The translations under genes were made by a program, and so were the position numbers. Positions 169-43,078 of a DNA stretch of 64,000 bases are shown here, piece by piece (within the stretch, counting starts at the first letter, position 1; every line of letters starts with the position of its first letter). The DNA lies in the NCBI RefSeq assembly GCF_044324785.1, contig NZ_CP172127.1. One strand, given 5' to 3'. This stretch comes from Escherichia coli (GTDB lineage: Bacteria; Pseudomonadota; Gammaproteobacteria; Enterobacterales; Enterobacteriaceae). A model generated the notes under the pieces. That model worked only from the letters and a program-made list of their open reading frames with translations, had not been told where the DNA came from and ran no database searches.

Positions 169-3100
169 TGGCTGCACATCATGAAGTGCATTTTGAACAA
201 TATATTACCGAGCAGTTGGTGAACAATGGCTGGAAAGAAGGCCATTCCTGCCACTATGACCAGCAACGCGCCCTTTACCCGCAAGATGTCATGGATTGGG
301 TAAAGGCCACCCAGCCAGATGCCTGGCACAAACTGAATAAACTGCATGGTGTGAATGCCGAGCAGGTGCTGTTGGAGCGTTTGGAAAAAGCCCTCTCTTC
401 CCACAAAGCTGGCAGTAAAACAGGTGGCACCATTAATGTGCTGCGTAAAGGCTTTACCATTGCAGGTTGCGGCACGATTGCCATGGGCCAACGCAAACCC
501 GAAGATGCGCGCAATGAAGAGCGTATAGCCCGTTATGAGCACAACATTTTGCGCGTGGTGCGCCAACTGAAATATTGCCCGACTCGCGAGTGGGAAATTG
601 ACTTGGTGTTCTTTATCAACGGTCTACCCGTTGCCACCGCCGAGCTAAAAACCGATTTTACCCAGTCGCTAGAATCGGCGATTGCGCAGTACAAAGAGGA
701 TCGTCTGCCCGTTGACCCAAAAACCAAGCGTAAAGAGCCGCTGTTAACCTTTAAACGCGGTGCAGTGGTACATTTTGCCATGTCTGATACAGAAATCGCC
801 ATGGCGACCAAACTGGCGGGAGAAAATACCTATTTTCTGCCCTTCAATAAAGGCCATGATGGTTCTACCTCTGATTTGCCCGTACACATCAACTTGCCGG
901 GTGAAGATGGAGAGTATCCGGTCAGCTATTTTTGGCAAGAAATTGCCCAAAAAGATAATTGGCTACGCATTTTCTACAGCTTTGTGTATGTCGAAACCAA
1001 AGAGGTTGCCGATAGCAATGGCAAGGTTGAGCGTAAGGAAACACAGATTTTTCCGCGTTATCATCAGTTAGCCGCAGTCAACAAGATGATTGATGATGCC
1101 CGCCAGAACGGCGCAGGCATGCAGTATCTTTGTGAGCACAGCGCCGGTTCGGGAAAAACCTCTACCATAGCCTGGACGGCCCATGATTTGATTCGTTTAC
1201 GCAGCACCGATGGTAAAGCGGTCTTTAAATCAGTGATCATTGTGACCGACCGCACCGTGCTGGATTCGCAGTTGCAAGATGCGGTGCAACAGCTGGATCA
1301 TCAATATGGGGTGATTAAGGTGATTGATCGCGAAAAGAGCAGCGAGTCGAAATCAAAACAGCTGACTGAAGCGCTATTGACTGGCACGCCGATCATTGTA
1401 GTGACGATTCAAACCTTCCCATATGCGTTAGAAGCGATTCTGACCAATCAATCTTTGGCACAAAGTAACTTTGCGGTGATCATCGATGAAGCACACACCT
1501 CGCAAACAGGCTCTACAGCCAAAGGGTTACGCGCAGCGCTTACTCTAAACCTTAGCCCTCAAGAGTTGGAGCAAATGAGCATTGAGGACATTCTTACTAA
1601 GGTGCAAGAAGCGCGCGCCATGCCCAAGAACGTTTCGCACTTTGCTTTTACGGCAACACCCAAGCACAGCACCAAGATGTTGTTTGGCCGCCCGAAAGAC
1701 CCTAACCAACCAGTGTCAGATGACAATCTTCCTGAATCGTTCCACCTCTACACCCAACGTCAGGCCATTGATGAGGGTTTTATTCTTGATGTGCTGGAGA
1801 ATTACACCCACTACGATACAGCCTACAAAATTGGTGAGAACAATCTGGATGAGAAGCGCGTAGACAGCAAACAAGCTCGCCGCGCGTTGGCGCGCTGGAT
1901 GTCACTGCACCCAACCACGGTCAGCCAAAAAGTCGAATTTATTATTAAGCACTTCAAGGCCAATATCGCTCACCTACTGGAAGGTGAAGCCAAAGCCATG
2001 GTGGTCACATCGGGCAGGCCACAGGCGGTGAAATACAAGCTTGCTTTTGATAAATACATTAAAAAGCATGGTATTGAAGGTATCCAAGCCTTGGTTGCCT
2101 TCTCGGGCAAAGTCCCCGGCAAAGATTTGGGTGATGAAGACAGCCAAGACCCGCTAGAAATTGATTTCGATAAAGAGTACACCGAGTACAACTTAAACCC
2201 AGACACGCACGGGGCTGACCTGCGCCATGAGTTTGAGAAAACCGAATATCGCGTCATGTTAGTCGCCAACAAGTTCCAAACGGGCTTTAATCAACCAAAA
2301 CTGGTTGCCATGTATTTGGATAAGAAAATATCCGATGTAGAAGCGGTGCAAACGCTGTCTCGCCTAAACCGCACCTATCCAGGCAAAGACACAACCTTCG
2401 TGATTGATTTTGTTAACGATCCACAAACCATTCTCAATGCGTTCAAAAAGTACGACAAAGGCGCGCAGCTTAATGAAGTGCAAGATGTGAACGTCATCTA
2501 TGACATCAAAGATATTTTGGATGAACAGAACATATACAACCATCAAGATTTAGAGTTGTTTAAGCAAGCGCGTGGTAAATCGATTCTCGGCCAATCACCT
2601 GACAAAAAGTCACACGCGCACAAGAAACTGCTAGCTGCCACACAACGCCCTACCGATGTGTTCAACGTTAAGCTCAAAGAGCTGGTTGATGCTGCAAACC
2701 ATTGGGATCAGCAATACAACAAAGCGCACCTTGCGGGTGATGAAAAAGCGGCGAACTACGCAGAATCTCAGCGCAGTGATTTCACCAAGCAGCGCGAAGC
2801 ACTAATGCGTTTTAAGTCAGATTTAGCTCGATTTGTGAAGCACTATAGCTATATGGCGCAATTGATTGAGTTTGGTGATCCTGAACTGGAAAACTTTGCC
2901 GCGTTTGCTCATTTGCTATCACGTCGATTGAAAGGGGTAACACCAGAAAACATCGATCTCAGTGCACTGGTACTAGAAAAATTCAAAATCAAATACGACA
3001 AAGAGCCGCTTCCAGAAGCGTTTAATCAGGTACTTGAACCTATCCGCCCCAACTATAACGACCCTGCGGATCGTGAACAGGCATTTCTTGCCGATATCAT

Positions 3101-3404
3101 TCGCCGCCTAAACGAACTGTTTGGCGATGTCGGCGACGAACCCGGTCGCCGAAACTTTGCCAACGGTACTATTACGCGTGTCACCCAAAATCCAATTGTG
3201 GTTGAGCAGATAGAAAAGCACGACAAGTCGATTGCCCTCAAAGGCGACTTGCCGCAAGCGGTGAAGCAAGCCGTTGTGCAGGCTCTGCTGAAAGAAGGTG
3301 ATATAGCCCGAACGCTACTCAAAGACCCACAAGTTATGGCAAGTTATGTTGAGTTGATTTTTGACATGATGAAGCAAGGTGCAGAACAGGCGGCGGTGAA
3401 ATAA
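168..3404 (+). CDS. hsdR: Type I restriction enzyme R subunit HsdR (1078 aa)
   Basis: Long ORF with SF2 helicase motifs (EHSAGSGKTSTIAW Walker A, IIDEAH DEAH box) and N-terminal nuclease region typical of HsdR; immediately follows hsdS. Confidence 0.9.
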   Translation: MAAHHEVHFEQYITEQLVNNGWKEGHSCHYDQQRALYPQDVMDWVKATQPDAWHKLNKLHGVNAEQVLLERLEKALSSHKAGSKTGGTINVLRKGFTIAGCGTIAMGQRKPEDARNEERIARYEHNILRVVRQLKYCPTREWEIDLVFFINGLPVATAELKTDFTQSLESAIAQYKEDRLPVDPKTKRKEPLLTFKRGAVVHFAMSDTEIAMATKLAGENTYFLPFNKGHDGSTSDLPVHINLPGEDGEYPVSYFWQEIAQKDNWLRIFYSFVYVETKEVADSNGKVERKETQIFPRYHQLAAVNKMIDDARQNGAGMQYLCEHSAGSGKTSTIAWTAHDLIRLRSTDGKAVFKSVIIVTDRTVLDSQLQDAVQQLDHQYGVIKVIDREKSSESKSKQLTEALLTGTPIIVVTIQTFPYALEAILTNQSLAQSNFAVIIDEAHTSQTGSTAKGLRAALTLNLSPQELEQMSIEDILTKVQEARAMPKNVSHFAFTATPKHSTKMLFGRPKDPNQPVSDDNLPESFHLYTQRQAIDEGFILDVLENYTHYDTAYKIGENNLDEKRVDSKQARRALARWMSLHPTTVSQKVEFIIKHFKANIAHLLEGEAKAMVVTSGRPQAVKYKLAFDKYIKKHGIEGIQALVAFSGKVPGKDLGDEDSQDPLEIDFDKEYTEYNLNPDTHGADLRHEFEKTEYRVMLVANKFQTGFNQPKLVAMYLDKKISDVEAVQTLSRLNRTYPGKDTTFVIDFVNDPQTILNAFKKYDKGAQLNEVQDVNVIYDIKDILDEQNIYNHQDLELFKQARGKSILGQSPDKKSHAHKKLLAATQRPTDVFNVKLKELVDAANHWDQQYNKAHLAGDEKAANYAESQRSDFTKQREALMRFKSDLARFVKHYSYMAQLIEFGDPELENFAAFAHLLSRRLKGVTPENIDLSALVLEKFKIKYDKEPLPEAFNQVLEPIRPNYNDPADREQAFLADIIRRLNELFGDVGDEPGRRNFANGTITRVTQNPIVVEQIEKHDKSIALKGDLPQAVKQAVVQALLKEGDIARTLLKDPQVMASYVELIFDMMKQGAEQAAVK

Positions 3405-3958
3405 TGAATACTGCGTTTCGGGTTTTACTTACGTTCAATGCAACATCACTACTAGTGATTATCTTTGCGGTACAAAAAGGGTACTCACTCGGATATTTCT
3501 TTGGTGGTTTCGCTTGCTTCGATTGGATAGCAGCACTTCCGAACGCAGTATCATATTTACTCTATTTTCTTATCCCTGTTTTATCGACTGGATTGAGTAT
3601 TTGGCTGAGTAAGTATTTGGGTAAAGACGATTTTAAGGCGGGTGAAGTAGCGAGTATTGAGCATGCCAATAACAGCTTCCTACCAAGTTATTTGGGTTAC
3701 TTTTTCGTGGCGTTGAGCATTGGTAACTGGGAGACATTGTGGTTTGTTTATGGCGTTTTGTTTGTTTTTACTCTCTTATCGCAAGCACTCTACTTTAACC
3801 CATTGTTTTTACTGTTTGGTTATGAGTTTTATAACATTACAACCAAAAACGGAACGGCCATTTTCCTTATTAGCCGAGAGCGCTACAAGAAGCCAGATGA
3901 CATCGAAATATCATTGGCTTATCGAATCAATAATTACACATTTATCGAGCGAGGATAA
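3404..3958 (+). CDS. Multi-pass membrane protein (184 aa), first gene of candidate two-gene defence module (KwaA-like architecture, unverified)
   Basis: ATG overlaps the hsdR stop; 4-5 hydrophobic helices (LLVIIFAVQ, FACFDWIAALPNAVSYLLYFLIPVLSTGLSIWL, YFFVALSIGNWETLWFVYGVLFVFTLL, LFLLFGYEF); visibly AT-richer than hsdR. Confidence 0.6.
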   Translation: MNTAFRVLLTFNATSLLVIIFAVQKGYSLGYFFGGFACFDWIAALPNAVSYLLYFLIPVLSTGLSIWLSKYLGKDDFKAGEVASIEHANNSFLPSYLGYFFVALSIGNWETLWFVYGVLFVFTLLSQALYFNPLFLLFGYEFYNITTKNGTAIFLISRERYKKPDDIEISLAYRINNYTFIERG

Positions 3959-22751: not shown

Positions 22752-23632
22752 ACACTCCTCGTCAGTATTCTGGCGGCCATTGCACTTAATCCCGGAGACA
22801 TGCGGTTGAATGCTGTTCCGACGGCGTTAAGCTGCCCGGAAACGGTATCCAGAGCACCTGCAATATTTCTTTTGTCCACACCACTCAGCGCAGACTGTGC
22901 CTGCTGTACATACGTGGCTGCTTCGCTGGCTGTTCTGGCCAGACTGATGGCATCGGGCATGGATTCAGAGAGTGCGTTAAACGCCGGAACACTTTTCCCC
23001 AGAGCCCCGGAGATATTACCCAGTCCGCTCATCAGCCCCGGCACACGGGTCAGTGCGACAACGGGGTTATCCTTCATTTTCTGTGTCACCCGAACGGCGC
23101 TGATAGTGGTCTGGAGTACAGACTGCGCCTGTTTCGCATAGTTGACGCCGTTGCGGATGAACTGCGCCACCCCGGAAGGTGAAGGAATGGCACCGGAGAC
23201 CGCCCCGACACCCGGGAGCTTCGTGCGTATTGCCGGTGGTTGCAGAGGATTTTTCGGGTCACCGGTGTATTCCCGGAGAGACACGGTGGCACTGACAGCC
23301 AGCACGTTGCCGGTACTGTCAGTCTGCTCGCTGGTTGCAGTCACATCGGTAATCACGAACCAGCCGCGATAGTCACCGTTGCCGAAGACCAGCGCCAGTG
23401 CCTGATGGGCTTTCATGGCTGTTCGCAGTCTCGCCAGCTCCACATCGGGTACACAATAATGCTGATGGAAAACCAGAGTTATCTGGATTTCGTCCAGCCT
23501 GTCGCCGACGAACTGCAGGCCAGGCTTACCCCCGATGCGGGCATGCTCCGCATAATCGACGCCGAACGTGGCCTCGAAGCCGTCCCAGTAGGTAATCAGC
23601 TCAAACTCAATATCACCCAGTACGGCAAACAT
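22748..23632 (-). CDS. Tail protein (P2 gpU / Mu DNA-circularisation protein N-like)
   Basis: 294 aa between tape measure and X; assignment by position. Confidence 0.5.
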   Translation of the reverse strand: MFAVLGDIEFELITYWDGFEATFGVDYAEHARIGGKPGLQFVGDRLDEIQITLVFHQHYCVPDVELARLRTAMKAHQALALVFGNGDYRGWFVITDVTATSEQTDSTGNVLAVSATVSLREYTGDPKNPLQPPAIRTKLPGVGAVSGAIPSPSGVAQFIRNGVNYAKQAQSVLQTTISAVRVTQKMKDNPVVALTRVPGLMSGLGNISGALGKSVPAFNALSESMPDAISLARTASEAATYVQQAQSALSGVDKRNIAGALDTVSGQLNAVGTAFNRMSPGLSAMAARILTRSV

Positions 23633-26600
23633 CAGCGGTACTCCTTACGTTGTTTCTGAGCCAGCAGACGCTCCAGCATTTTTTCCAGCTCATGCAGACT
23701 CATATTCAGGGCACCAGTCAGTCCTGCAGGCGCTGTGGTTTCCCTGCCATTGAGGAAAAACTGAGGATTAAAGCTGACCTGGATACCACCAGACGTTCCA
23801 CCGCCGGTTGCAGCTGCACCACGGCCTGAATATCCGGCAGCCAGGATTTCAGGCGAGGGGATACGGGGAACATCCGGTGTCATCTCATTTGCCAGACGTT
23901 GCCCTGGTAAAATCGATGCCCGGGTGGAGAGCGGAATAACGGGCATGGAAGACAAACTATTGATTACGGCTCCGATCGCATTTTTAGCAGACGACATAAA
24001 CCCATTGATATCGGGCAACGGCATACTGAAGCGAACACCTGAAGTGTTATCCCGTATTTCTGGCCCCTGAATGCTCACGGGCATTCTGGGGAGCAGTTCA
24101 CTGGCCATTCGCTGCCCGGCCAGAGCTGCAAGCGGAGTGGTCCGCTGCAGGCCAATGGCGGCCCCCTGCGCGATATTGTCACCAAAGCCCATAAACACGC
24201 GGCTCGGCGAATGAATGCCCAGCTTTTCGCTGAACCAGCCACTGATGCTGTCACCCATTCCGGTTACACTGGATTTGAGCGACTCCCATTTGTTTTTGAT
24301 ACCGTTAATCAGACCGTCGACAAGATGGCCACCGAAGTCGGTGAACTTTGCCGGCAGATCAACACCAAGATATTTCAGCGCAGCTGCAAAGGCTTTATAG
24401 AGCAGACCTGCCGGCGACCAGTTAATCAGCAGCTTACCAGTTCCCGCGATACCGCCGTTAAAGGCTTCCTGAATGTCAGCCCAGCACTGTTTAAACCAGC
24501 TACTGATGCTGTCACCCATTCCGGTTACACTGGATTTGAGCGACCCCCATTTGTTTTTGATACCGTTAATCAGACCGTCGATAAGATGGCCACCGAAGTC
24601 GGTGAACTTTGCCGGCAGAGCAACGCCGAAATATTTCAGCGCAGCCGCAAAGGCTTTATAGAGCAGGCCTGCCGGCGACCAGTTAATCAGCAACTTACCA
24701 ATTCCCACAATGCCGCCGTTAAAGGCTTCCTGAATGTCAGCCCAGCGCTGTTTAAACCAGCTACTGATGCTGTCACCCATTCCGGTTACACTGGATTTGA
24801 GCGACCCCCATTTGCTTTTGATACCGTTAATCAGACCGTCGATAAGATGGCCACCGAAGTCGGTGAACTTTGCCGGCAGAGCAACGCCGAAATATTTCAG
24901 CGCAGCCGCAAAGGCTTTATAGAGCAGGCCTGCCGGCGACCAGTTAATCAGCAACTTACCAATTCCCACAATGCCGCCGTTAAAGGCTTCCTGAATGTCA
25001 GCCCAGCGCTGTTTAAACCAACCACTGACAGCCCCCCAGTTGCGGTAGATAAGGTAAGCTGCTGTCGCGACAGCGGTGATAACGAGACCGATGGGATTCA
25101 TCATCAGCGCTCGCCCAATCCAGAGAACGGCACGTGCAGCGCTCATAAAACCGCGAACGAGGCTGCCCGCCAGAACTTTGCTGAGTTTCAGTCCTCCGCT
25201 GGTCAGTCGGCTGAATCCAGTGACAAGCCAGCGTAATTTGCCACCTTCTCCGAGTGCGGTAGTCAGTCGATGCCAGTTGGTCCGGAGTAAAACAGTAGTT
25301 TTCCAGACGTTCACAAAGGGGGAAATAAGGAGATTCAGCCCCAGTTTGAGACCAATAGTCGCTATCTTAATCGCAAGGAGCGCACTGATGAGCTTAAAAG
25401 CCCCACTGACAAATTGCGGGTGAGTCGCTACCCAGTGTTTTGTCCCCTGAATGAGTGGGAGCAGTTCCTGAGTCAGAGAAATAAAAGATGGAGCTAATTG
25501 ATCGCCCAGCGTAATTGCCAGATCGCGACTGCTGACCATAAGTGTTTTAGTGGCTTCAAGGGGAGATTTCAGCCGCTGATCATAAGCACTGGCAAGCAAA
25601 TCGTTATCCGCAGCCCTGAGAGCACCGGCACGGATCTCTCGATATCTGTCCATGTTGGCCAGCATCGGGCGGATAAATGCCATGACCTGCATATCCGCGA
25701 ACATATCGCCCAGACCAAAGTTTTTCGCCAGAGCCTGAAGTGCCTCATCTCTTGCCGTATCATTCTTTATTTTCATGGCTGATTTGAAGCCGGCCAGCGC
25801 TTCGGGGCTTTTGGCATTGAGGTAACGTTCTATAACACTCAACATCCCTTCAATCGGAGAGATCCCCGCAGCTTTATAACTCGCAATAGATCCCTGCAAA
25901 TCAATACCCAGATCAGCAAACTGTTTCTGAGTATCGCGGGCAAAAATTTTGGTAAGAAAGTTTTTAAAATTATTGGCTGCTTCGTCGGTGGAACCTGCAC
26001 CGATTTTTGCTATCTGGAGACTGGCCCCGATTTCAGCAACAGCCTCTTTTCCACTGGCAAGACCCGCCATCATTGGGGCCAGGGACTGCATCCACTTGAC
26101 CTGATCCGGGATTTCAAATGACCCCTGGTCACCGGCATAAGCCATAATATTCTGAACGGCACCAAAATCTCTGGCCGCACCTTTCAGGGAGTTTTGCCAG
26201 ACTGCGGCCACTTTTGCCCAGTCCTGAGCAGACGTGCGTGTTGCCGTTGCCGCGCGGGCAATATCCGGCATCAGAAAACCGATATCTGACACATTATCAA
26301 TATTGTCGCTGATGAGTGAACCCACCGCCTCCTGCAGCTCATCCTGATACTGATTGTATTTAAGCGCCCAGCCTTTTATCTGTCCGGCAAGTGCATCCCG
26401 CGTTTTATTGTCATATTTTGCGGTGATCGACATATCAATCATTTTGTCCTGAAAAGACATGGACTGCTGAACGGCAGGGGAAACCGTATGATAAACAGTC
26501 TGTGCCATGCCATACGCTTCAATCCCCTGACCATACAGCGCCATGCGGTTAGCTTTCAGCGCATCACTGGTAGCGGATGCCGCTGACAGACGGCGCTGCT

Positions 26601-26844
26601 GGCGCTCAATTTGCTCCATGGTGCGGCTTACCCGCAGCAGCTCGCTGTTGAGATGCTGCATCCGGGAAGAACCCAGTTGACCATAACGTTCTGTTGCACG
26701 GGTTAAAGCGTTCTGACGTTCCTGCAGGCGGCGTGAGGTATCGCTCAGGGAATCAAGCGCACGGCGGGTACCGCTCATTGCAGAACGGAATGTGCTGCCA
26801 ATCATCCCGCCGATAACAACGCCGACTGAAAACTGTCCCGACAT
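23632..26844 (-). CDS. Tail tape measure protein (1070 aa) with internal triplicated 87-aa repeat
   Basis: Long, Ala/Gly-rich, coiled-coil-like N-terminus; sits after the tail chaperones. Confidence 0.85.
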   Translation of the reverse strand: MSGQFSVGVVIGGMIGSTFRSAMSGTRRALDSLSDTSRRLQERQNALTRATERYGQLGSSRMQHLNSELLRVSRTMEQIERQQRRLSAASATSDALKANRMALYGQGIEAYGMAQTVYHTVSPAVQQSMSFQDKMIDMSITAKYDNKTRDALAGQIKGWALKYNQYQDELQEAVGSLISDNIDNVSDIGFLMPDIARAATATRTSAQDWAKVAAVWQNSLKGAARDFGAVQNIMAYAGDQGSFEIPDQVKWMQSLAPMMAGLASGKEAVAEIGASLQIAKIGAGSTDEAANNFKNFLTKIFARDTQKQFADLGIDLQGSIASYKAAGISPIEGMLSVIERYLNAKSPEALAGFKSAMKIKNDTARDEALQALAKNFGLGDMFADMQVMAFIRPMLANMDRYREIRAGALRAADNDLLASAYDQRLKSPLEATKTLMVSSRDLAITLGDQLAPSFISLTQELLPLIQGTKHWVATHPQFVSGAFKLISALLAIKIATIGLKLGLNLLISPFVNVWKTTVLLRTNWHRLTTALGEGGKLRWLVTGFSRLTSGGLKLSKVLAGSLVRGFMSAARAVLWIGRALMMNPIGLVITAVATAAYLIYRNWGAVSGWFKQRWADIQEAFNGGIVGIGKLLINWSPAGLLYKAFAAALKYFGVALPAKFTDFGGHLIDGLINGIKSKWGSLKSSVTGMGDSISSWFKQRWADIQEAFNGGIVGIGKLLINWSPAGLLYKAFAAALKYFGVALPAKFTDFGGHLIDGLINGIKNKWGSLKSSVTGMGDSISSWFKQCWADIQEAFNGGIAGTGKLLINWSPAGLLYKAFAAALKYLGVDLPAKFTDFGGHLVDGLINGIKNKWESLKSSVTGMGDSISGWFSEKLGIHSPSRVFMGFGDNIAQGAAIGLQRTTPLAALAGQRMASELLPRMPVSIQGPEIRDNTSGVRFSMPLPDINGFMSSAKNAIGAVINSLSSMPVIPLSTRASILPGQRLANEMTPDVPRIPSPEILAAGYSGRGAAATGGGTSGGIQVSFNPQFFLNGRETTAPAGLTGALNMSLHELEKMLERLLAQKQRKEYR
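24200..25020. repeat. Three tandem ~261-bp coding repeats inside the tape-measure gene
   Basis: Shadow ORFs at 24215, 24473 and 24734 are near-identical; protein repeats ISSWFKQRWADIQEAFNGGIVGIGKLLINWSPAGLLYKAFAAALKYFGVALPAKFTDFGGHLIDGLINGIK.KW.SLKSSVTGMGDS three times. Confidence 0.8.
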
Positions 26845-38293: not shown

Positions 38294-38601
38294 TCACTCC
38301 AGTATTTTTCCGGGCGGGCAATACCGGGGCCGCATTCCACGGTGTATTCCACAATATCCACACCAAGGCGACTCAGATCGGCAAACCAGTCACCGGAAGG
38401 CCTCTTCTCCAGTTCCACCATCTTGCGATCTGCCAGGTAATCAAGCTCACGGCGCAGCTCCAGTTGCGTGGTGTCCGGGTAGATGGCGCGGGACACTTCC
38501 AGCAGCAGCGTCTCGCTGGCGGTATAAGGGCGGGTTTTGTTCAGGGCAACCAGCAGACTCCAGCGCAGGGATTCGCGGCGTACCCGGGTAATATCGACCA
38601 T
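38290..38601 (-). CDS. Hypothetical phage protein (103 aa)
   Basis: Coupled ORF between lysis and packaging genes. Confidence 0.45.
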   Translation of the reverse strand: MVDITRVRRESLRWSLLVALNKTRPYTASETLLLEVSRAIYPDTTQLELRRELDYLADRKMVELEKRPSGDWFADLSRLGVDIVEYTVECGPGIARPEKYWSE

Positions 38602-38927
38602 TATTGACCTCCGGTATTGCGGTACTGCTGTACCACTTCCAGTTTGTTGTAGAGCGCGTCCAGTTTGGCCTCGATGACTGTCTGGCCACGGATATAATCC
38701 TCGCGACGGACATAATTCAGCGGTAAATCCGCTTTAAATCGCATAAATTCTTTTTCCAGTTCGCCCCAGTTGGAGGCGGACTGTTGCAGGGCCTGCTCAA
38801 GGGAGGCGAATCGTGCCGCCTGGCGTTCTTCTGTTTTACTGAACAACCATTTGGCGAGCCCTCCCACAAACCCCATGAAGGTGAGCAAAAAACTCACCAC
38901 CGTCCAGAATTCAACCTGCAGTGTCAT
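38601..38927 (-). CDS. Small phage membrane protein (108 aa, one N-terminal TM helix)
   Basis: FWTVVSFLLTFMGFVGGLAKWLF hydrophobic segment. Confidence 0.45.
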   Translation of the reverse strand: MTLQVEFWTVVSFLLTFMGFVGGLAKWLFSKTEERQAARFASLEQALQQSASNWGELEKEFMRFKADLPLNYVRREDYIRGQTVIEAKLDALYNKLEVVQQYRNTGGQ

Positions 38928-39535
38928 TTCTGTAATCCTTCCCGTTCATCCAGTAGCGCGTTTATCTGGTTTCGCCAGCGACGACATTGCCCTGCGTTGT
39001 CGATGATGTTGGCAAGGACGTCAAGCTGGGAGACACCCGAATTGCGTAACCGGGCGTCAGCGGTTTCAGGTTGCCCGGTCGCTGCGCCAGTGCCGGTGCC
39101 AGCGGCGGCAACTGAGTCTGAATGACCGGTGTCGACGGATGCGTTGTCGTATCCGAGTGCGGCGTTGTACTGGCGCACGAAACCGCGAGTAAACACGCAC
39201 TCAATGGGATGGCTCTTACCTTTTTCATCAATCCAGCGCTGTGTGACATCGTTAATTTGCCCCTGTAGTTGTTTGTTCTGGTCCTCCAGTTGAGCAATCT
39301 GCTCAAGATAACCAGCTTCAGCCCGTTGCCCGGCGGCTACCTGCTCCTGATAACGCTCAGACCATGCGCGCAACGCCGCCACCTCACGCCGGGCCTGTTC
39401 TGCCCGGTATCCGTCAAAATCCGCCTGCAGGCGGCTGAGCGCCGCCTGACCGTCAGCGGAGGCCCGGTCGTGGCCTGTGCTGTATCCCAGCCACCAGATC
39501 GCCAGCAGGAAGGTGTTCAGGAGAATGGCCAGCAT
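38924..39535 (-). CDS. i-spanin (Rz-like)
   Basis: Start MLAILLNTFLLAIWWLGY (N-terminal TM) then coiled-coil-rich periplasmic domain; follows the endolysin. Confidence 0.6.
   Translation of the reverse strand: MLAILLNTFLLAIWWLGYSTGHDRASADGQAALSRLQADFDGYRAEQARREVAALRAWSERYQEQVAAGQRAEAGYLEQIAQLEDQNKQLQGQINDVTQRWIDEKGKSHPIECVFTRGFVRQYNAALGYDNASVDTGHSDSVAAAGTGTGAATGQPETADARLRNSGVSQLDVLANIIDNAGQCRRWRNQINALLDEREGLQK
38962..39228 (-). CDS. o-spanin (Rz1-like lipoprotein) embedded in +1 frame within the i-spanin gene
   Basis: MKKVRAIPLSACLLAVSCAS... signal peptide with lipobox-like LAVSC, Pro/Thr-rich body. Confidence 0.55.
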   Translation of the reverse strand: MKKVRAIPLSACLLAVSCASTTPHSDTTTHPSTPVIQTQLPPLAPALAQRPGNLKPLTPGYAIRVSPSLTSLPTSSTTQGNVVAGETR

Positions 39536-39563
39536 AATGACCCGCCACGGCAGCGACCGTAAC

Positions 39564-40301
39564 TTACGTACCCACACAGCTTGCCCCTCCCCATGAGAGA
39601 TAACGCGGGGCCAGCGTGAACAGGATGCGCTGGGGATAATGACGGTTCTCCCGCCAGCTGGCAGTGCTGCGTCCGGCATTCACCGTGGCGACATGACCAA
39701 ACCAGCGGGTGCTGTCCAGCCCTTTTTGTGATGCAAGCCGCCTGTCCCGCTGTACCCAGCCCAGACCACCGTTATAGCCCGACAGTGTCATGGCCATACG
39801 CTCGCAGTCACTGGCGGCGCTGACGCGCTGCCACAGCCAGCGGTCATAGCTGACCAGCGCCCGGATGGCCCATGCCGGATTAAATGGCTCACGGCTGTTA
39901 AGCCCCGGCATCAACTGACTTATCCAGTCGGCGGTGGCGGGCATGAACTGCGCCAGTCCCTGAGCGCCAACCGGCGAGATCGCATCAGGTCGCCAGCCGC
40001 TTTCCTGATGCAGTTGCGCAGCGAAATCAGCCACCGGCGCAGACAGTCCCCATTCAAGCCGGGCATTACGGATCACATCATCGCGATACTGCAGCGCTGC
40101 CTGCGGAGGCTGCGCTGCGCGGGCCTGACTGAAGAAGCCGCCACACCAGAGCAACATTGCGACAAAGAATACCCGTGCCATATGAACCAGAAAGGTCCCG
40201 GCGCGGACTGACAGGCGTTCGGTTCTGATGAAGACCCTAAAGGCTTCGAAAGCCAGTTTCAGGGACATGCATACAATCCAGGTGATCTGCGGCCAGTTCA
40301 T
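39564..40301 (-). CDS. Endolysin, lytic transglycosylase (SLT-domain) type, possibly signal-anchored
   Basis: SLT-like motif ...QLHQESGWRPDAISPVGAQGLAQFMPATADW...; hydrophobic N-terminal segment. Confidence 0.75.
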   Translation of the reverse strand: MNWPQITWIVCMSLKLAFEAFRVFIRTERLSVRAGTFLVHMARVFFVAMLLWCGGFFSQARAAQPPQAALQYRDDVIRNARLEWGLSAPVADFAAQLHQESGWRPDAISPVGAQGLAQFMPATADWISQLMPGLNSREPFNPAWAIRALVSYDRWLWQRVSAASDCERMAMTLSGYNGGLGWVQRDRRLASQKGLDSTRWFGHVATVNAGRSTASWRENRHYPQRILFTLAPRYLSWGGASCVGT

Positions 40302-40303
40302 GA

Positions 40304-40654
40304 TTAAAGCCCCATCGCAACAGCCAGACAGACCGCTGCAACAATCAGTGCACGGCGGATTAACGCAGCAGAAAACACCAGGTGAAGGCCGGTCTGTACC
40401 GGGAAACGCCCATCAGCCATCAGCCTGTCGTCATGTTTCAGGTACTGACCGGGACGGGCTTTGGGGAAGAGCGAACGGTCAAGCCAGTAACCCAGCACTG
40501 CTGCCAGCGTGATGAGTGCCAGCTTGTAGATCACAACAGGCAACTGCTGTGGCGAGACCAGAGCGATGGTGCCCAGCAACAGCACTGAGGTCAGCAGCCA
40601 GCCGCTGAGGCGAGGTTTTTTAACAGGGGGAATGAATTTTTTCAGGTTTTTCAT
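40304..40654 (-). CDS. Putative holin (small membrane protein, 2-3 TM helices)
   Basis: SD AGGAGA before ATG 40654; first gene of the late leftward operon, immediately upstream of the endolysin. Confidence 0.5.
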   Translation of the reverse strand: MKNLKKFIPPVKKPRLSGWLLTSVLLLGTIALVSPQQLPVVIYKLALITLAAVLGYWLDRSLFPKARPGQYLKHDDRLMADGRFPVQTGLHLVFSAALIRRALIVAAVCLAVAMGL

Positions 40655-40784
40655 GTGTGTCTCCTTGTCTGGTGGAGACAGCATCACAAATACAGGGCGC
40701 GAAGGATTTTAAAGCGCGTTAAGAGAGCCGGGGATACGGGATGTGCAGGATAAACGATGAATTATTCACAGAGGAGAATACGAT

Positions 40785-41528
40785 ATGACGCAGACACTGA
40801 ATCCGGTCATCACTGTCACCGTGTCCGGTCCTGTGGGCAGCGGTAAAAGTTACATATTGGCGCGGATAGAGGAAGTGGTGAAACAGGAATTCGGGGGCAG
40901 CGTCATTGTCGATGCTGCAGACGTAGATGATGAGCGGCGTATGAGTGGCGATGATCTGACGACCTGGCAGAAGCCACGGGGTGGCACAGTGATCAGGCTG
41001 GAGGAATACACGGGACAGGGCCTGTTGTCATACGGCGAGGAGCGTATCTGTCGGACGAATGAGCTGCTGGATGTTATATGCCCCACGGGCCGGCAACCCT
41101 GGATACTGCCCGATGCACTGCATGCCACCATTGCGGCACTGATGACAGTTTACGATCAGGAGCTGCTCATGAAGGAGCTACGTAAACTCACCGGTCAGCC
41201 AACAGAATGTTTTTCTGCCCCGAAGTACGGGAAACAGGAACACATCCCGGTGAACACGCTCCCCGTTAACCAGCCTCCCCGGTTCTTCGACGAATACATT
41301 CTGACACCGGAAAATAAAGCTGAGCACGAAGAGATCAAAGCGGCGTTGTTCCGGGAAATCAGGAAGATTGCTGAAATGCAACTGGGGGGCGGGCTGGACA
41401 GAGTGATGGCGAGAGGAGAATGGGAGTCGCTGTTTGAAAGAGTTTCCCCGGAATTACTTCCCCTCGCACTGGCTATCGGGATTATGCAGACAGCGGATAA
41501 ACCTCACTTACGTTCATTAAACACGTAA
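40785..41528 (+). CDS. P-loop NTPase-like protein of unknown function (247 aa)
   Basis: Walker A GPVGSGKS at residues 15-22, rest without recognisable motif; SD GAGGAG 8 nt upstream. Confidence 0.5.
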   Translation: MTQTLNPVITVTVSGPVGSGKSYILARIEEVVKQEFGGSVIVDAADVDDERRMSGDDLTTWQKPRGGTVIRLEEYTGQGLLSYGEERICRTNELLDVICPTGRQPWILPDALHATIAALMTVYDQELLMKELRKLTGQPTECFSAPKYGKQEHIPVNTLPVNQPPRFFDEYILTPENKAEHEEIKAALFREIRKIAEMQLGGGLDRVMARGEWESLFERVSPELLPLALAIGIMQTADKPHLRSLNT

Positions 41529-41908
41529 CGCATAATCCGGGATACGCATTCAGCGATGACTGCATTTTCACCGGTTTTTACTGCATCCAGAAGTGACTCT
41601 TTAAATGGTGCGGGCCGGGGCTGCAGAAGGGTCGGCGTGGCATTGAGCAGACGGAGCGTTTTTTCCGTGAGGACGACATCAGCCGCTCCCACAGCCAGCA
41701 ACTGAGAGTAACGAATATAGCTGTTATCCCGAAGCCATATCAGCGTATCAATAAAATACCGGCACTTTTTCTGGTCGTGATCAACCTGGTCCGGGATATC
41801 GAAAAAACCAGAATAAATCAAAACCTGAGGTGCCGGATGCGTGTTCAGTAATCGGCAGAATATTTTGCCGGTGAGTGCATAAAAATCATCATTTAAGGAG
41901 TGCATCAT
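41504..41908 (-). CDS. Hypothetical protein (134 aa)
   Basis: ORF whose ATG (41906-41908) overlaps the divergent ATG of the next gene (41907). Confidence 0.4.
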   Translation of the reverse strand: MMHSLNDDFYALTGKIFCRLLNTHPAPQVLIYSGFFDIPDQVDHDQKKCRYFIDTLIWLRDNSYIRYSQLLAVGAADVVLTEKTLRLLNATPTLLQPRPAPFKESLLDAVKTGENAVIAECVSRIMRYVFNERK

Positions 41909-42122
41909 GAATCCCCGATTAACGTTAACAGAACATCAGCGCCGTGCTGAAGCAGTGAACAATGTTCTGGAAGATATTATCCGGTTACATCGCGGAGAAC
42001 TGAGTGTCTGTCGTGCCGCTTTTCATTTTCAGGGAATACAAAAGCAGTTTGATACTTCTGTTTTTGCAGAAGGTATTACTTATGCCCTGGACCGGATAAG
42101 GTCAGAAAATCGCCCCGGATAA
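41907..42122 (+). CDS. Hypothetical small protein (71 aa)
   Basis: SD AAGGAG 6 nt upstream of ATG. Confidence 0.4.
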   Translation: MNPRLTLTEHQRRAEAVNNVLEDIIRLHRGELSVCRAAFHFQGIQKQFDTSVFAEGITYALDRIRSENRPG

Positions 42123-42313
42123 TCCCTAAACCACATTAACAGAAATCCCACTATCCCTGCCGCATCATGAAAGAACGACCAGCCCGGTGCTTCGGACCCA
42201 CCGGGCTGGCCATCGTCCCACAGAAGTGGCTGTGAGCCGACCGAGGTTCAGTCAGTCTCGCGAGACCAGACTAGCCTGCCATATTTTTAATAATTGTAAA
42301 AGGCTTACAGATT

Positions 42314-43078
42314 ATGAAAATGAAGACATTACCCATCGTTCCATGGATTGGTGGCAAACGTCGCCTGGCAAAACACATCCTGCCGCTGTTTCCGGCGCAT
42401 GAATGTTATGTGGAGCCGTTTTGTGGGGCAGCAGCGCTCTATTTTCTTAAGACACCCGGCAAGATCGAAGTCATCAATGATATCAACGGTGAACTGGTGA
42501 ATCTGTACCGGGTGGTAAAGCATCACCTGGAAGAATTTGTCCGCCAGTTCAAATGGGCGCTGGTCAGCCGTCAGATCTACAAATGGCTGCAGATCACCCC
42601 GGAAGAAACACTGACGGATATCCAGCGTGCGGCACGGTTCTACTACCTTCAGAAGCAGGCGTTTGGCGGCAAGGTGGCAGAGCACAGCTTCGGTACCTCC
42701 ACCACATCCCCGCCACGCTTCAACCTGCTGCGTATTGAAGAAGAACTGTCAGCAGCACACCTGCGGCTTTCCAGAACAGTCATAGAACACATGGACTGGC
42801 AACAGTGCATTGAGCGTTATGATCGTCCGCACACACTGTTCTACTGCGACCCACCGTACCTGGGTACGGAAGGCTATGGTGTGGATTTTCCTGAAGGGAA
42901 CTACTCGCGGCTGGCAGAGCTGGCCCGGTGCATCAGAGGAAAAATGATAATTTCGGTGAACGATATCCCACAGATGCGCGAGGTGTTCACTGGACTGAAC
43001 ATACAGACAGTGAACATCAACTACAGTCTGGCGGGGAAATCTACGCCGCGCCGTGAACTGGTAATCTGCAACTTCTGA
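42314..43078 (+). CDS. DNA N6-adenine methyltransferase (Dam-like)
   Basis: N-terminal WIGGKRRLAKHILPLFP and catalytic DPPY motif (YCDPPYLG). Confidence 0.85.
   Translation: MKMKTLPIVPWIGGKRRLAKHILPLFPAHECYVEPFCGAAALYFLKTPGKIEVINDINGELVNLYRVVKHHLEEFVRQFKWALVSRQIYKWLQITPEETLTDIQRAARFYYLQKQAFGGKVAEHSFGTSTTSPPRFNLLRIEEELSAAHLRLSRTVIEHMDWQQCIERYDRPHTLFYCDPPYLGTEGYGVDFPEGNYSRLAELARCIRGKMIISVNDIPQMREVFTGLNIQTVNINYSLAGKSTPRRELVICNF

Follow-up and report, generated by a model that had tools for sequence, protein, structure and literature searches.

A probable BcepMu-type host-lysis cassette in a Mu-like Escherichia coli prophage

Two questions are raised by a run of small, overlapping reading frames in an E. 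coli prophage: whether together they could lyse the host, and how the endolysin among them would reach the cell wall. We examined the frames within a window of 64,000 nucleotides from contig NZ_CP172127.1 (assembly GCF_044324785.1). They very probably constitute a BcepMu-type host-lysis cassette that heads the late operon of a Mu-like (Bcepmuvirus-like) transposable prophage and that would act in the four steps proposed below. Judged by sequence, the cassette is already known in kind, its counterpart being annotated in Burkholderia phage BcepMu, and its sole unusual feature seems to be the apparent mode of export of the endolysin.

Organization and distribution of the cassette

The region and genes concerned are the following.

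40655..40784, minus strand: intergenic stretch before the holin gene, presumably a late promoter region that depends on an activator
40304..40654, minus strand: holin, 116 aa, Holin_2-3 family (PF13272, phrog_1528, homology to BcepMu gp21)
39564..40301, minus strand: endolysin precursor, 245 aa, made up of a hairpin at the N-terminus, then a linker, then an SLT lytic-transglycosylase domain (PF01464, phrog_669)
38924..39577, minus strand: i-spanin (Rz-like), 217 aa, GTG start (phrog_1403, homology to BcepMu gp23)
38962..39228, minus strand: o-spanin (Rz1-like) prelipoprotein, 88 aa (lipoprotein rule, homology to BcepMu gp24)
38601..38927, minus strand: bitopic membrane protein, 108 aa, BcepMu gp25 homolog (phrog_462; homology and position)

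The initial annotation had proposed four lysis reading frames here, and all four are present, each on the minus strand, in the order holin, SLT endolysin and i-spanin with the o-spanin embedded in it. The functions it had given them are backed both by matches to family models and by homology to BcepMu, gene for gene. The genes are tightly packed, with stops and starts that overlap, and no terminator above chance level was found within the cassette. The four genes are homologous, in the same order, to BcepMu gp21–gp24 and to ORF24–27 of phage B3, and the order is kept further in comparison with BcepMu gp21–gp26, B3 ORF24–29, Fc02 and one metagenomic relative. From the holin to gp26, six proteins of the prophage are homologous and collinear with those of BcepMu, with identities of 53% (holin and gp21), 61% (endolysin and gp22), 32% (i-spanin and gp23, Rz) and 36% (o-spanin and gp24, Rz1; E = 1.4e-11) in BLASTP, and then of 49% (gp25) and 57% (gp26). 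As in BcepMu, Mu gp27-like and gp28-like terminase genes come next; the two differ in host, Burkholderia in one case and E. coli in the other. Upstream of the holin gene, the intergenic region reaches to a divergent gene that begins at 40785 on the plus strand. This region presumably functions as an activator-dependent late promoter; neither a sigma-70 consensus match nor repeats were found in it, and the prophage encodes a Mor-family activator.

Near-identical cassette DNA is found in 637 of 5426 complete E. coli genomes. Near-identical cassettes (87–92% identity) are also carried by PhiKM and KP12, which were isolated as virions, and these speak against the view that a cryptic prophage has left here a lysis cassette in decay and without function. 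Such a relic could be suspected from the location in a bacterial chromosome and has a parallel in a degraded Salmonella relative, in which an SLT protein without its N-terminus remains and spanins and head genes are gone. Here, however, all of the frames are intact, the overlapping pair included, as are the catalytic residues of the endolysin, and the prophage still carries genes for a transposase, Gam, Mor, head and tail, along with an unbroken tape-measure ORF of 1070 aa. We consider decay very unlikely. No other muralytic enzyme is annotated elsewhere in the prophage.

The holin and the embedded spanin pair

The first gene, previously described as encoding a small protein with two or three transmembrane segments in the holin position, matches the Holin_2-3 model PF13272 with 141 bits (cut-off 27, E = 1.5e-41) and phrog_1528 'holin' with E = 8e-55. 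Hydropathy gives three hydrophobic segments (residues 16–34, 40–58 and 92–110). Its N-terminus is basic (MKNLKKFIPPVKKPR), two transmembrane segments are clear, and the C-terminal tail, consisting of RR and a hydrophobic part, is conserved. Its small size, its above-threshold model match, its possession of at least two transmembrane segments and its position directly upstream of the endolysin gene are all in keeping with the holin family. Its start is preceded at 6 nt by an AGGAG Shine-Dalgarno sequence. A dual-start holin/antiholin motif was considered and rejected: the upstream GTG and ATG (40687 and 40684) have no Shine-Dalgarno sequence, and there is no second N-terminal Met, whereas the B3/Fc02 holin has both M1 and M14. 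A literature search found no experimental papers on the Holin_2-3 family, and an NCBIfam search with the cassette proteins returned no matching spanin or holin model. Family and position suggest that, as a first step in lysis, the holin would build up in the inner membrane and permeabilise or depolarise it at a set time.

The open reading frame of the i-spanin extends in full from 39679 to 38924. GTG 39577 is likely the true start, with GGAGG 8 nt upstream; from here the gene overlaps the 3' end of the endolysin gene by 14 nt. The start given in RefSeq, ATG 39535, lacks a Shine-Dalgarno sequence, and KP12 and PhiKM have no Met at this position; RefSeq appears to begin the protein 14 codons too late. 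The i-spanin matches phrog_1403 'Rz-like spanin' (E = 7e-88). As in other i-spanins, the N-terminus (here MWVRKLRSLPWR) has a basic cytoplasmic tail that leads into a transmembrane anchor (residues 13–31, the most favourable hydropathy score among all segments scanned), which is followed by a largely helical periplasmic domain, in this case with Cys127 and Cys198.

An o-spanin with the lipobox LAVSC had been proposed in the +1 frame of this gene. The lipobox is real and the frame is conserved. The o-spanin gene lies wholly inside the i-spanin gene, beside the endolysin gene, and covers the part from 0.53 to 0.94 of the i-spanin length, which matches the typical embedded spanin geometry (PMC6139136); BcepMu and B3 are listed there among the spanin families of embedded architecture. 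The lipoprotein signal expected of 38962–39228 was found by a PROSITE PS51257-type rule, with the signal MKKVRAIPLSACLLAVS/C and the signal peptidase II lipobox cysteine at Cys18 (encoded at 39175–39177). The mature protein has 71 aa, 11 of them Pro, and carries Ala rather than Asp at the +2 position. No clear Shine-Dalgarno sequence was found before its ATG, and an alternative in-frame ATG lies at 39249. When the i-spanin gene was resampled with synonymous codons in 20000 draws, an embedded ATG-initiated ORF that passes the lipoprotein rule arose in 60 of them (0.3%). The embedded frame is conserved in six phages; homologous +1 ORFs with a lipobox occur in PhiKM, KP12, B3 and Fc02, and that of BcepMu is annotated as Rz1.

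The prototype of the embedded two-component spanin is Rz/Rz1 of phage lambda, which the prophage pair resembles in the N-terminal transmembrane segment and helical periplasmic domain of its i-spanin, and in a lipoprotein o-spanin gene wholly inside the i-spanin gene in the +1 frame, with a proline-rich mature part. It differs from lambda in that no sequence similarity to Rz is detectable, the PHROG family is a different one, and the subunits are larger, at 217 and 88 aa compared with 153 and 60 aa. Lambda Rz1 has a periplasmic cysteine, Cys29, whereas the prophage o-spanin has none. The Rz1 of BcepMu, also embedded out of frame and proline-rich, likewise differs by a second periplasmic Cys that is missing from the E. 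coli prophage protein. The action of Rz/Rz1 on the outer membrane is established, its loss giving spherical cells, and by analogy the fourth step of lysis would have the inner-membrane, presumably coiled-coil i-spanin and the outer-membrane lipoprotein o-spanin form a complex across the periplasm, which would disrupt the outer membrane once the wall is gone.

The endolysin and its route to the periplasm

The endolysin ATG is located 2 nt past the holin stop (TAATCATG), and no clear Shine-Dalgarno sequence was found before it. Three parts of the precursor can be told apart.

40128..40301, minus strand: hydrophobic two-helix hairpin module, residues 1–58 (MNWPQI...LLWCGGFF), phrog_5479 (alignment with KP12, B3 and Fc02 gene 22)
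40116..40124, minus strand: Ala60-Arg61-Ala62, candidate signal peptidase I site, with cleavage predicted at Ala62/Ala63 (-3/-1 conservation)
39567..40115, minus strand: predicted mature periplasmic SLT domain, residues 63–245 (conserved catalytic motifs)

That the enzyme is an SLT-type transglycosylase, as first suggested, is borne out by model, motifs and fold. It scores 53.5 bits against PF01464 (cut-off 21.3) and E = 5e-67 against phrog_669 'endolysin'. The best Foldseek matches of its AF2 model (mean pLDDT 81) are MltF, MltE and Slt, and these three and MltC are matched at a probability of 1.00. Along 99 aligned homologs the motifs E100-S101, G115-L-A-Q118 and Y176-N-G178 are conserved, with E100, G115, Q118, Y176 and N177 invariant in all 99; a cysteine pair is conserved as well (Cys166 in 99, Cys242 in 96). 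An SLT model match and fold together with E-S, G-L-x-Q and Y-N-x-G motifs characterize the family-1 lytic transglycosylases. Glu100, encoded at 40002–40004, aligns with Glu478 of Slt70 (1sly, E = 6.5e-7), the catalytic residue of that enzyme. From what is known of the family, the third step would be cleavage of MurNAc-GlcNAc bonds by means of Glu100.

The N-terminus of the endolysin had been described as hydrophobic and possibly of the signal-anchor-release (SAR) type. Its hydrophobicity was confirmed, with two hydrophobic helices evident from hydropathy and from the AF2 model (residues 3–27 and 33–52), the first of which is only marginally hydrophobic in this allele, with K15, E19 and R22. 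A canonical SAR character was not supported. These helices form a module that is encoded in phage Fc02 by a stand-alone 52-aa gene (gene 22), and a profile search with the hairpin returned 422 representatives, mostly stand-alone proteins of 52–58 aa. The module is followed by a junction that reads GGFF-S-Q-A-x-A-A-(Q/E)-P in 91 homologs, where the -3 and -1 positions are almost always Ala and the -2 position varies (N, R, H, A, D, S, Q or Y). Hairpin and junction are conserved together in 91 of 95 full-length enterobacterial homologs. Residues 59–62 are the least confident stretch of the AF2 model (pLDDT < 50). Equivalents of the Ala-x-Ala are found as VAA/Q in BcepMu, AKA/D in B3 and AFA/T in Fc02.

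The hairpin is followed by a conserved Ala-x-Ala signal-peptidase motif, and this favours Sec export of the endolysin, with cleavage or with tethering, over SAR release. In this second step the enzyme, as a family-1 lytic transglycosylase with its own Sec-type export signal, would need no large holin hole. The second helix of the hairpin would place the SLT domain in the periplasm, and the -3/-1 pattern suggests that signal peptidase I most likely frees a 183-aa soluble enzyme there, leaving behind a 62-aa membrane peptide whose equivalent is a separate gene in Fc02. Such a cleaved, soluble endolysin would leave its restraint before holin triggering unexplained.

In a canonical pinholin/SAR system, an uncleaved signal-anchor would hold the endolysin inactive in the inner membrane until depolarisation by the holin lets it exit the bilayer. 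The hydrophobic N-terminus and the need for a periplasmic SLT domain agree with this system, the hydrophobicity of the second helix does not exceed that of the P1 Lyz or R21 SAR domains (by approximate Hessa-scale sums), and related SLT endolysins of Fc02-type Pseudomonas Mu-like siphophages have been described as SAR endolysins (PMC9239132). However, the loop between the two helices carries three Arg, and release would have to pull it across the membrane. G, A, S and T make up 0.21 of the helices, compared with 0.53–0.63 for the SAR segments of Mu gp22, P1 Lyz and R21, and 91 homologs conserve an A-x-A whose middle residue varies, with matches at the equivalent position in BcepMu, B3 and Fc02. 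Release of this kind is, in our view, unlikely. Canonically, a SAR domain consists of one Gly/Ala-rich segment close to the N-terminus, and BcepMu gp22 has reportedly been called a SAR endolysin. The prophage enzyme would have in common with P1 Lyz, R of phage 21 and Mu gp22 a holin-independent, Sec-dependent placement in the periplasm by a hydrophobic N-terminus. It differs from them in being a lytic transglycosylase and not a lysozyme, and in having two helices with a charged loop and then the conserved A-x-A in place of one weakly hydrophobic Gly/Ala/Ser-rich segment after a short tail.

The endolysin might also be neither cleaved nor released and act, once the holin fires, as a lytic transglycosylase anchored by its hairpin. 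The hairpin is probably a stable membrane anchor, because it belongs to a family of small, autonomous membrane proteins; membrane anchoring is common among host lytic transglycosylases, the outer-membrane-anchored MltE is among the Foldseek matches, and the AF2 model has a flexible linker between hairpin and SLT domain. This linker is only about 10 residues long, however, which restricts reach into the wall, and tethering leaves the conserved -3/-1 Ala pattern without explanation. Furthermore, hairpin and enzyme are separate polypeptides in Fc02, and in BcepMu gp22 the hairpin module is lacking and the N-terminal signal is single and short (MRVLIAFVVALLGAAAPVAA/Q); covalent tethering is therefore dispensable in relatives. 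We regard permanent tethering as quite improbable.

It has to be considered as well whether the hairpin is made at all. If translation began at Met41 (ATG 40181), the first 40 codons would be unexpressed and the endolysin would have a plain cleavable signal peptide, MARVFFVAMLLWCGGFFSQARA/AQ. From Met41 the sequence does resemble a textbook n-h-c signal peptide, and neither ATG has a good Shine-Dalgarno sequence. Nevertheless, about 90 of 95 homologs keep the M-x-W-P-Q-I motif and the first helix, as does the stand-alone family, Met41 is missing in most homologs (for example KP12), and the Arg of the would-be n-region is Trp in PhiKM. ATG 40301 is coupled to the holin stop, and in P0296, a diverged E. 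coli allele, the frame is preserved although several of residues 1–40 are changed. We rejected the internal start on this conservation and hold it to be very unlikely.

A compensated frameshift as the origin of the N-terminal difference between this endolysin and that of KP12 was also rejected, as the DNA alignment shows no frame switch; between the conserved MNWPQIT and LLWCGGFF ends the two differ by plain divergence or mosaic replacement. Nor do stand-alone phrog_5479 genes appear to be lysis-cassette genes in general. None of five context look-ups placed them next to holins or endolysins; their neighbours were early, replication and recombination genes (RecT, DnaB, RusA, RecA-dependent nuclease) or they lay on uninformative short contigs, and Fc02 is the exception.

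A downstream membrane protein and relatives of the cassette

The gene for the 108-aa protein overlaps the i-spanin stop with its start (ATGA). The protein, also 42% identical to B3 ORF28, has a transmembrane segment at residues 7–25 followed by K26, K31 and R35. Its gene lies two genes past the endolysin gene and directly upstream of the gp26 homolog (phrog_436), the slot that is occupied by DUF2730 proteins in Mu and Fc02. It resembles the Mu releasin gp25 in its size, in an N-out/C-in topology with a single transmembrane domain and a helical cytoplasmic domain, and in its place before the gp26 homolog and within five genes downstream of the endolysin. It is unlike Mu gp25 in that no similarity of sequence or profile was found, and homology to the releasin was rejected. 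BLASTP gave no match to Mu gp25 and one of E = 0.64 to Fc02 gp26, PF10805 (DUF2730) was not matched by the protein and 22 relatives even at E <= 1, a Pfam search with the protein at E <= 10 gave no DUF2730 match, and hhalign of the family against DUF2730 alignments gave a probability of 1.8%. What remains is equivalence of position and topology, and we consider the protein a candidate accessory lysis factor on position only. Two of its relatives bear the UniRef name 'DUF2730'. The E. coli prophage cassette includes a holin gene, unlike that of Mu.

Like the prophage, B3 and Fc02 have a holin of the Holin_2-3 family, an embedded spanin pair and an SLT endolysin whose catalytic domain is about 60% identical; both differ in that one more small ORF separates their endolysin and Rz genes. 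In B3 the hairpin and the SLT enzyme are fused in the same way, and a BcepMu gp25-like gene is present. Fc02, in contrast, has the separate hairpin gene, an endolysin with its own signal and a DUF2730 protein in the downstream slot.

It is possible, though doubtful, that the endolysin is an autonomous small-membrane-protein module (phrog_5479) joined to an SLT enzyme through a signal peptidase I site, so as to yield a soluble enzyme and a 62-aa peptide that may have a role in lysis control, with the BcepMu gp25-family protein as a possible non-homologous analog of the Mu releasin. If true, Gram-negative phages would possess a means of endolysin export that depends on no holin and is not of the SAR type.

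The main value of this analysis lies in annotation. The o-spanin is unannotated in RefSeq, PhiKM and KP12, where the i-spanin is labelled 'hypothetical' or 'lipoprotein', and these faults touch hundreds of E. coli genomes. In biological terms, nothing else would be expected at the head of a BcepMu-like late operon, and the export domain of the endolysin is the single point of possible interest to lysis specialists. The conserved leader of hairpin and AxA, fused to the enzyme in E. coli, Salmonella, Pectobacterium and B3 and split from it in Fc02, offers a natural experiment on the control of Sec-exported lytic transglycosylase endolysins, and the cassette permits one to ask whether BcepMu gp25-like proteins stand in for DUF2730 releasins.

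Gene content and relatives of the lysis cassette

The lysis genes of this Mu-like prophage lie at 38924-40654, where four genes are found, all on the minus strand; the extents and the +1 frame relationship given in the initial annotation were correct.

Genes of the lysis region and its surroundings (coordinates, strand, product)
40654..40304, minus: holin, 116 aa; AGGAG ribosome-binding site 6 nt upstream; Pfam Holin_2-3 (PF13272), 141 bits against a cut-off of 27; phrog_1528, holin
40301..39564, minus: endolysin, 245 aa; ATG 2 nt past the holin stop (TAATCATG); Pfam SLT (PF01464), 53.5 bits against a cut-off of 21.3; phrog_669, endolysin
39577..38924, minus: i-spanin, 217 aa from the most likely start, GTG 39577; GGAGG 8 nt upstream; 14-nt overlap with the endolysin gene; no Pfam family; phrog_1403, Rz-like spanin, E = 7e-88; RefSeq 'hypothetical protein' (L001 3725-4336)
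39228..38962, minus: o-spanin, 88-aa ORF wholly within the i-spanin gene, +1 frame
38927..38601, minus: 108-aa bitopic membrane protein; BcepMu gp25 family, phrog_462; start on the i-spanin stop (ATGA)
42314-43078: DNA adenine methylase, in the accessory block 40785-43078

An unbroken run of six proteins, beginning with the holin and ending with the homolog of Mu gp26, matches BcepMu gp21, gp22, gp23, gp24, gp25 and gp26 in the same order, with identities of 53, 61, 32, 36, 49 and 57%, respectively. The same arrangement is present in Pseudomonas phages B3 and Fc02 and in one metagenomic relative. Prophages of E. coli ABU 83972, SK1144 and others carry DNA 100% identical to that of the cassette, and 637 of the 5426 complete E. 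coli genomes contain it; DNA identity is 92% with Escherichia phage PhiKM (a Bcepmuvirus by classification) and 87% with Klebsiella phage KP12. The cassette belongs to the well-known BcepMu/B3 type of lysis cassette and lies in a common E. coli prophage.

The holin-like nature proposed for the first gene is borne out by its family matches and by its identity to BcepMu gp21. The second product had been read as an SLT-type transglycosylase, and this too stands: the E-S (E100-S101), G-L-A-Q (115-118) and Y-N-G (176-178) motifs are kept across 99 aligned homologs, with E100, G115, Q118, Y176 and N177 present in every one. Among solved sequences the nearest is E. coli Slt70 (1sly; E = 6.5e-7), in which Glu478 aligns with E100, and the AlphaFold2 model (mean pLDDT 81) is matched by Foldseek to MltF, MltE, Slt and MltC. 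Cys166 occurs in 99/99 homologs and Cys242 in 96/99, and the pair may form a periplasmic disulfide.

The upstream ATG at 40301 is supported as the probable endolysin start by the M-x-W-P-Q-I N-terminus kept in most homologs and by its coupling to the holin stop. Internal Met41 was rejected as a start because it is not conserved. In B3 (L005), the endolysin gene as annotated (ORF25, 2791-3585) begins at a TTG and shares 61 nt with the holin gene; the conserved start of the N-terminal hairpin module, MGIPQT (ATG at 2854), comes immediately past the holin stop and seems the more likely one. RefSeq (PGAP) begins the i-spanin at ATG 39535, 14 codons downstream of GTG 39577, where there is no Shine-Dalgarno sequence and the Met is not conserved in KP12 or PhiKM. 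Initiation at the GTG, which is preceded by a strong GGAGG, gives the protein back its basic cytoplasmic tail and is the most likely.

The embedded o-spanin gene

The embedded ORF is absent from the RefSeq, PhiKM and KP12 annotations, and the i-spanin is labelled 'putative lipoprotein' in the latter two records. The ORF matches no library family (Pfam, PHROGs), but is 36% identical (E = 1.4e-11) to BcepMu gp24, annotated in GenBank as 'Rz1, out of frame, embedded proline-rich protein'. Absence of a lipoprotein signal would have told against the proposed o-spanin; by our own implementation of the PROSITE PS51257 rule, the signal is present at Cys18 (MKKVRAIPLSACLLAVS followed by CAS). With Ala at +2, the protein has no signal for retention in the inner membrane. 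Of 20000 synonymous recodings of the i-spanin drawn from local codon usage, only 60 (0.3%) held an embedded ATG-initiated ORF of at least 40 aa passing the rule, indicating that the frame is more than chance.

Homologous +1 ORFs with a lipobox and a common P-rich core (…PP.L…RPG….LTP.Y) are embedded in the i-spanin genes of PhiKM, KP12, B3 and Fc02, starting at 0.50-0.53 of i-spanin length. In a survey of spanins, about 70% of embedded o-spanins begin at 0.4-0.5 L and finish at 0.9-1 L, and the embedded families include BcepMu/phiE255 and B3/JBD (PMC6139136). The mature protein has 71 residues, 11 of them Pro. Unlike Rz1 of BcepMu and B3/Fc02, the o-spanins of the window, PhiKM and KP12 lack a second, periplasmic Cys, the PVCP of the former being PVIQ in the enterobacterial phages. 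Any covalent dimerisation of the spanin would need the two periplasmic Cys of the i-spanin, Cys127 and Cys198.

Downstream membrane protein and prophage setting

The 108-aa protein, homologous to BcepMu gp25 and B3 ORF28, has a single transmembrane segment, at the N-terminus; K/R residues come next, and then a helical region with the strongly conserved motif YVRREDY.RGQ..IEAKLD. Immediately downstream of its gene is that for the Mu gp26 homolog (both that homolog and Mu gp26 are phrog_436). In Mu the same slot holds gp25, a DUF2730 'releasin' needed to free the SAR (signal-anchor-release) endolysin (PMC9239132), and in Fc02 it holds a DUF2730 protein; both share size and topology with the 108-aa protein. 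B3 and Fc02 have near-identical flanking genes, yet carry different families (gp25-like and DUF2730) in this slot. Since none of the homology tests linked the two families, the likeness to the Mu releasin may be taken as positional analogy only. The PHROG 'lipoprotein' label appears to derive from a non-conserved Cys in B3 ORF28; the N-terminus of the 108-aa protein has no Cys.

Genes for a transposase, a MuB-like ATPase, Gam, GemA and Mor are present in the prophage, followed by a late operon with terminase genes resembling those for Mu gp27 and gp28, and with head and tail genes. The stretch 40785-43078, which separates the lysis operon from the early region, holds divergently arranged accessory genes, including, besides the methylase, those for a 247-aa protein with a P-loop-like GPVGSGKS (phrog_3787, labelled unknown function) and a 134-aa phrog_2266 protein; this block differs in PhiKM and KP12. 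The prophage (about 22200-48200) is, over most of its length, collinear with, and approximately 99-100% identical to, the SK1144 copy. The genes flanking the latter (truncated ssuB, ssuC) are not in the window, consistent with transposition into different chromosomal sites. The tape-measure gene (23632-26844) is an intact 1070-aa ORF here and is flagged as a pseudogene in SK1144.

A Salmonella Infantis SARB27 contig carries, in the STM4212-4219 region, a degraded relative. Mor and a 95-aa Holin_2-3-like protein are encoded there, along with an SLT gene that lacks the hairpin part and a BcepMu gp25-like gene; tail sheath and tube genes come right after these. Spanin and head genes are missing, which gives the relative a tailocin-like layout.

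Probable export of the endolysin

The initial annotation noted a hydrophobic endolysin N-terminus; two hydrophobic stretches are present, which AlphaFold2 models as helices (3-27 and 33-52), joined by a loop, RTERLSVR, with three Arg. This block, residues 1-58, ends in LLWCGGFF; the first helix of this allele, which contains K15, E19 and R22, has only marginal hydrophobicity. The N-terminal parts of the endolysins of KP12 and B3 align with residues 1-58, as does a separate gene lying between the holin and endolysin genes of Fc02.

Fc02 genes (L007 coordinates)
2253-2411: hairpin gene, 52 aa (MGAPQIIWIV…VWWGGFFG), ending exactly at GGFFG
2408-3037: endolysin, N-terminus MKRLLTLGLLGLLSAC; the lipobox rule fits by eye (Cys16), and there is also an AFA↓T site

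A search with a profile of this block returned 422 cluster representatives out of 1.84 billion at E <= 0.001, mostly stand-alone proteins of 52-58 aa, with some tandem duplications and a few fusions to SLT domains. They correspond to phrog_5479 (labelled unknown function) and to no Pfam family; this is a sizeable family of phage proteins of about 54 aa with two TMDs and the consensus MGAPQIIWIVL…KHGE…LLWWGGFF. Apart from the Fc02 gene, stand-alone members in five genomic contexts lie among early, replication or recombination genes or on short contigs, not beside lysis genes. The positive-inside rule predicts an N-out/C-out hairpin for the module, so that anything fused to its C-terminus would be placed in the periplasm.

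At the junction directly after the hairpin, the sequence in 91 enterobacterial homologs is GGFF-S-Q-A-x-A-A-(Q/E)-P. There, Ala is almost invariant at -3 and -1 and position -2 is N, R, H, A, D, S, Q or Y, the pattern that marks signal peptidase I sites. In the AlphaFold2 model this stretch is the least confident part (residues 59-62, pLDDT <50). Under different leaders the aligned positions read VAA↓Q in BcepMu, AKA↓D in B3 and AFA↓T in Fc02. For the KS10 homolog cleavage has been predicted at 44/45, and such lysins were noted to differ at the N-terminus (PMC2628397).

The earlier suggestion of a possible SAR endolysin did not hold for a canonical SAR domain. In Mu gp22, P1 Lyz and R21 this domain is one segment, 53-63% of it Gly/Ala/Ser/Thr, in contrast to two helices with an Arg-rich loop and 21% here, followed by the conserved A-x-A. 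Approximate Hessa-scale hydropathy sums do not place the second helix above the P1 and R21 SAR domains, which speaks for SAR-type release; given the other features we regard it as unlikely. It is rather improbable that the enzyme stays permanently tethered. The near-invariant AxA, the two-helix leader and the low Gly/Ala/Ser/Thr content lead us to favour, tentatively, Sec export followed by cleavage. SLT endolysins of the Fc02 type have been described as SAR endolysins (PMC9239132); judged from its N-terminus, that of Fc02 could instead be lipidated, or secreted and cleaved.

Going by established holin-endolysin-spanin lysis, the holin would permeabilise the membrane at a set time, the endolysin would act as a periplasmic lytic transglycosylase and the spanin complex would disrupt the outer membrane. 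The sole departure from textbook schemes would be the export leader of the endolysin.
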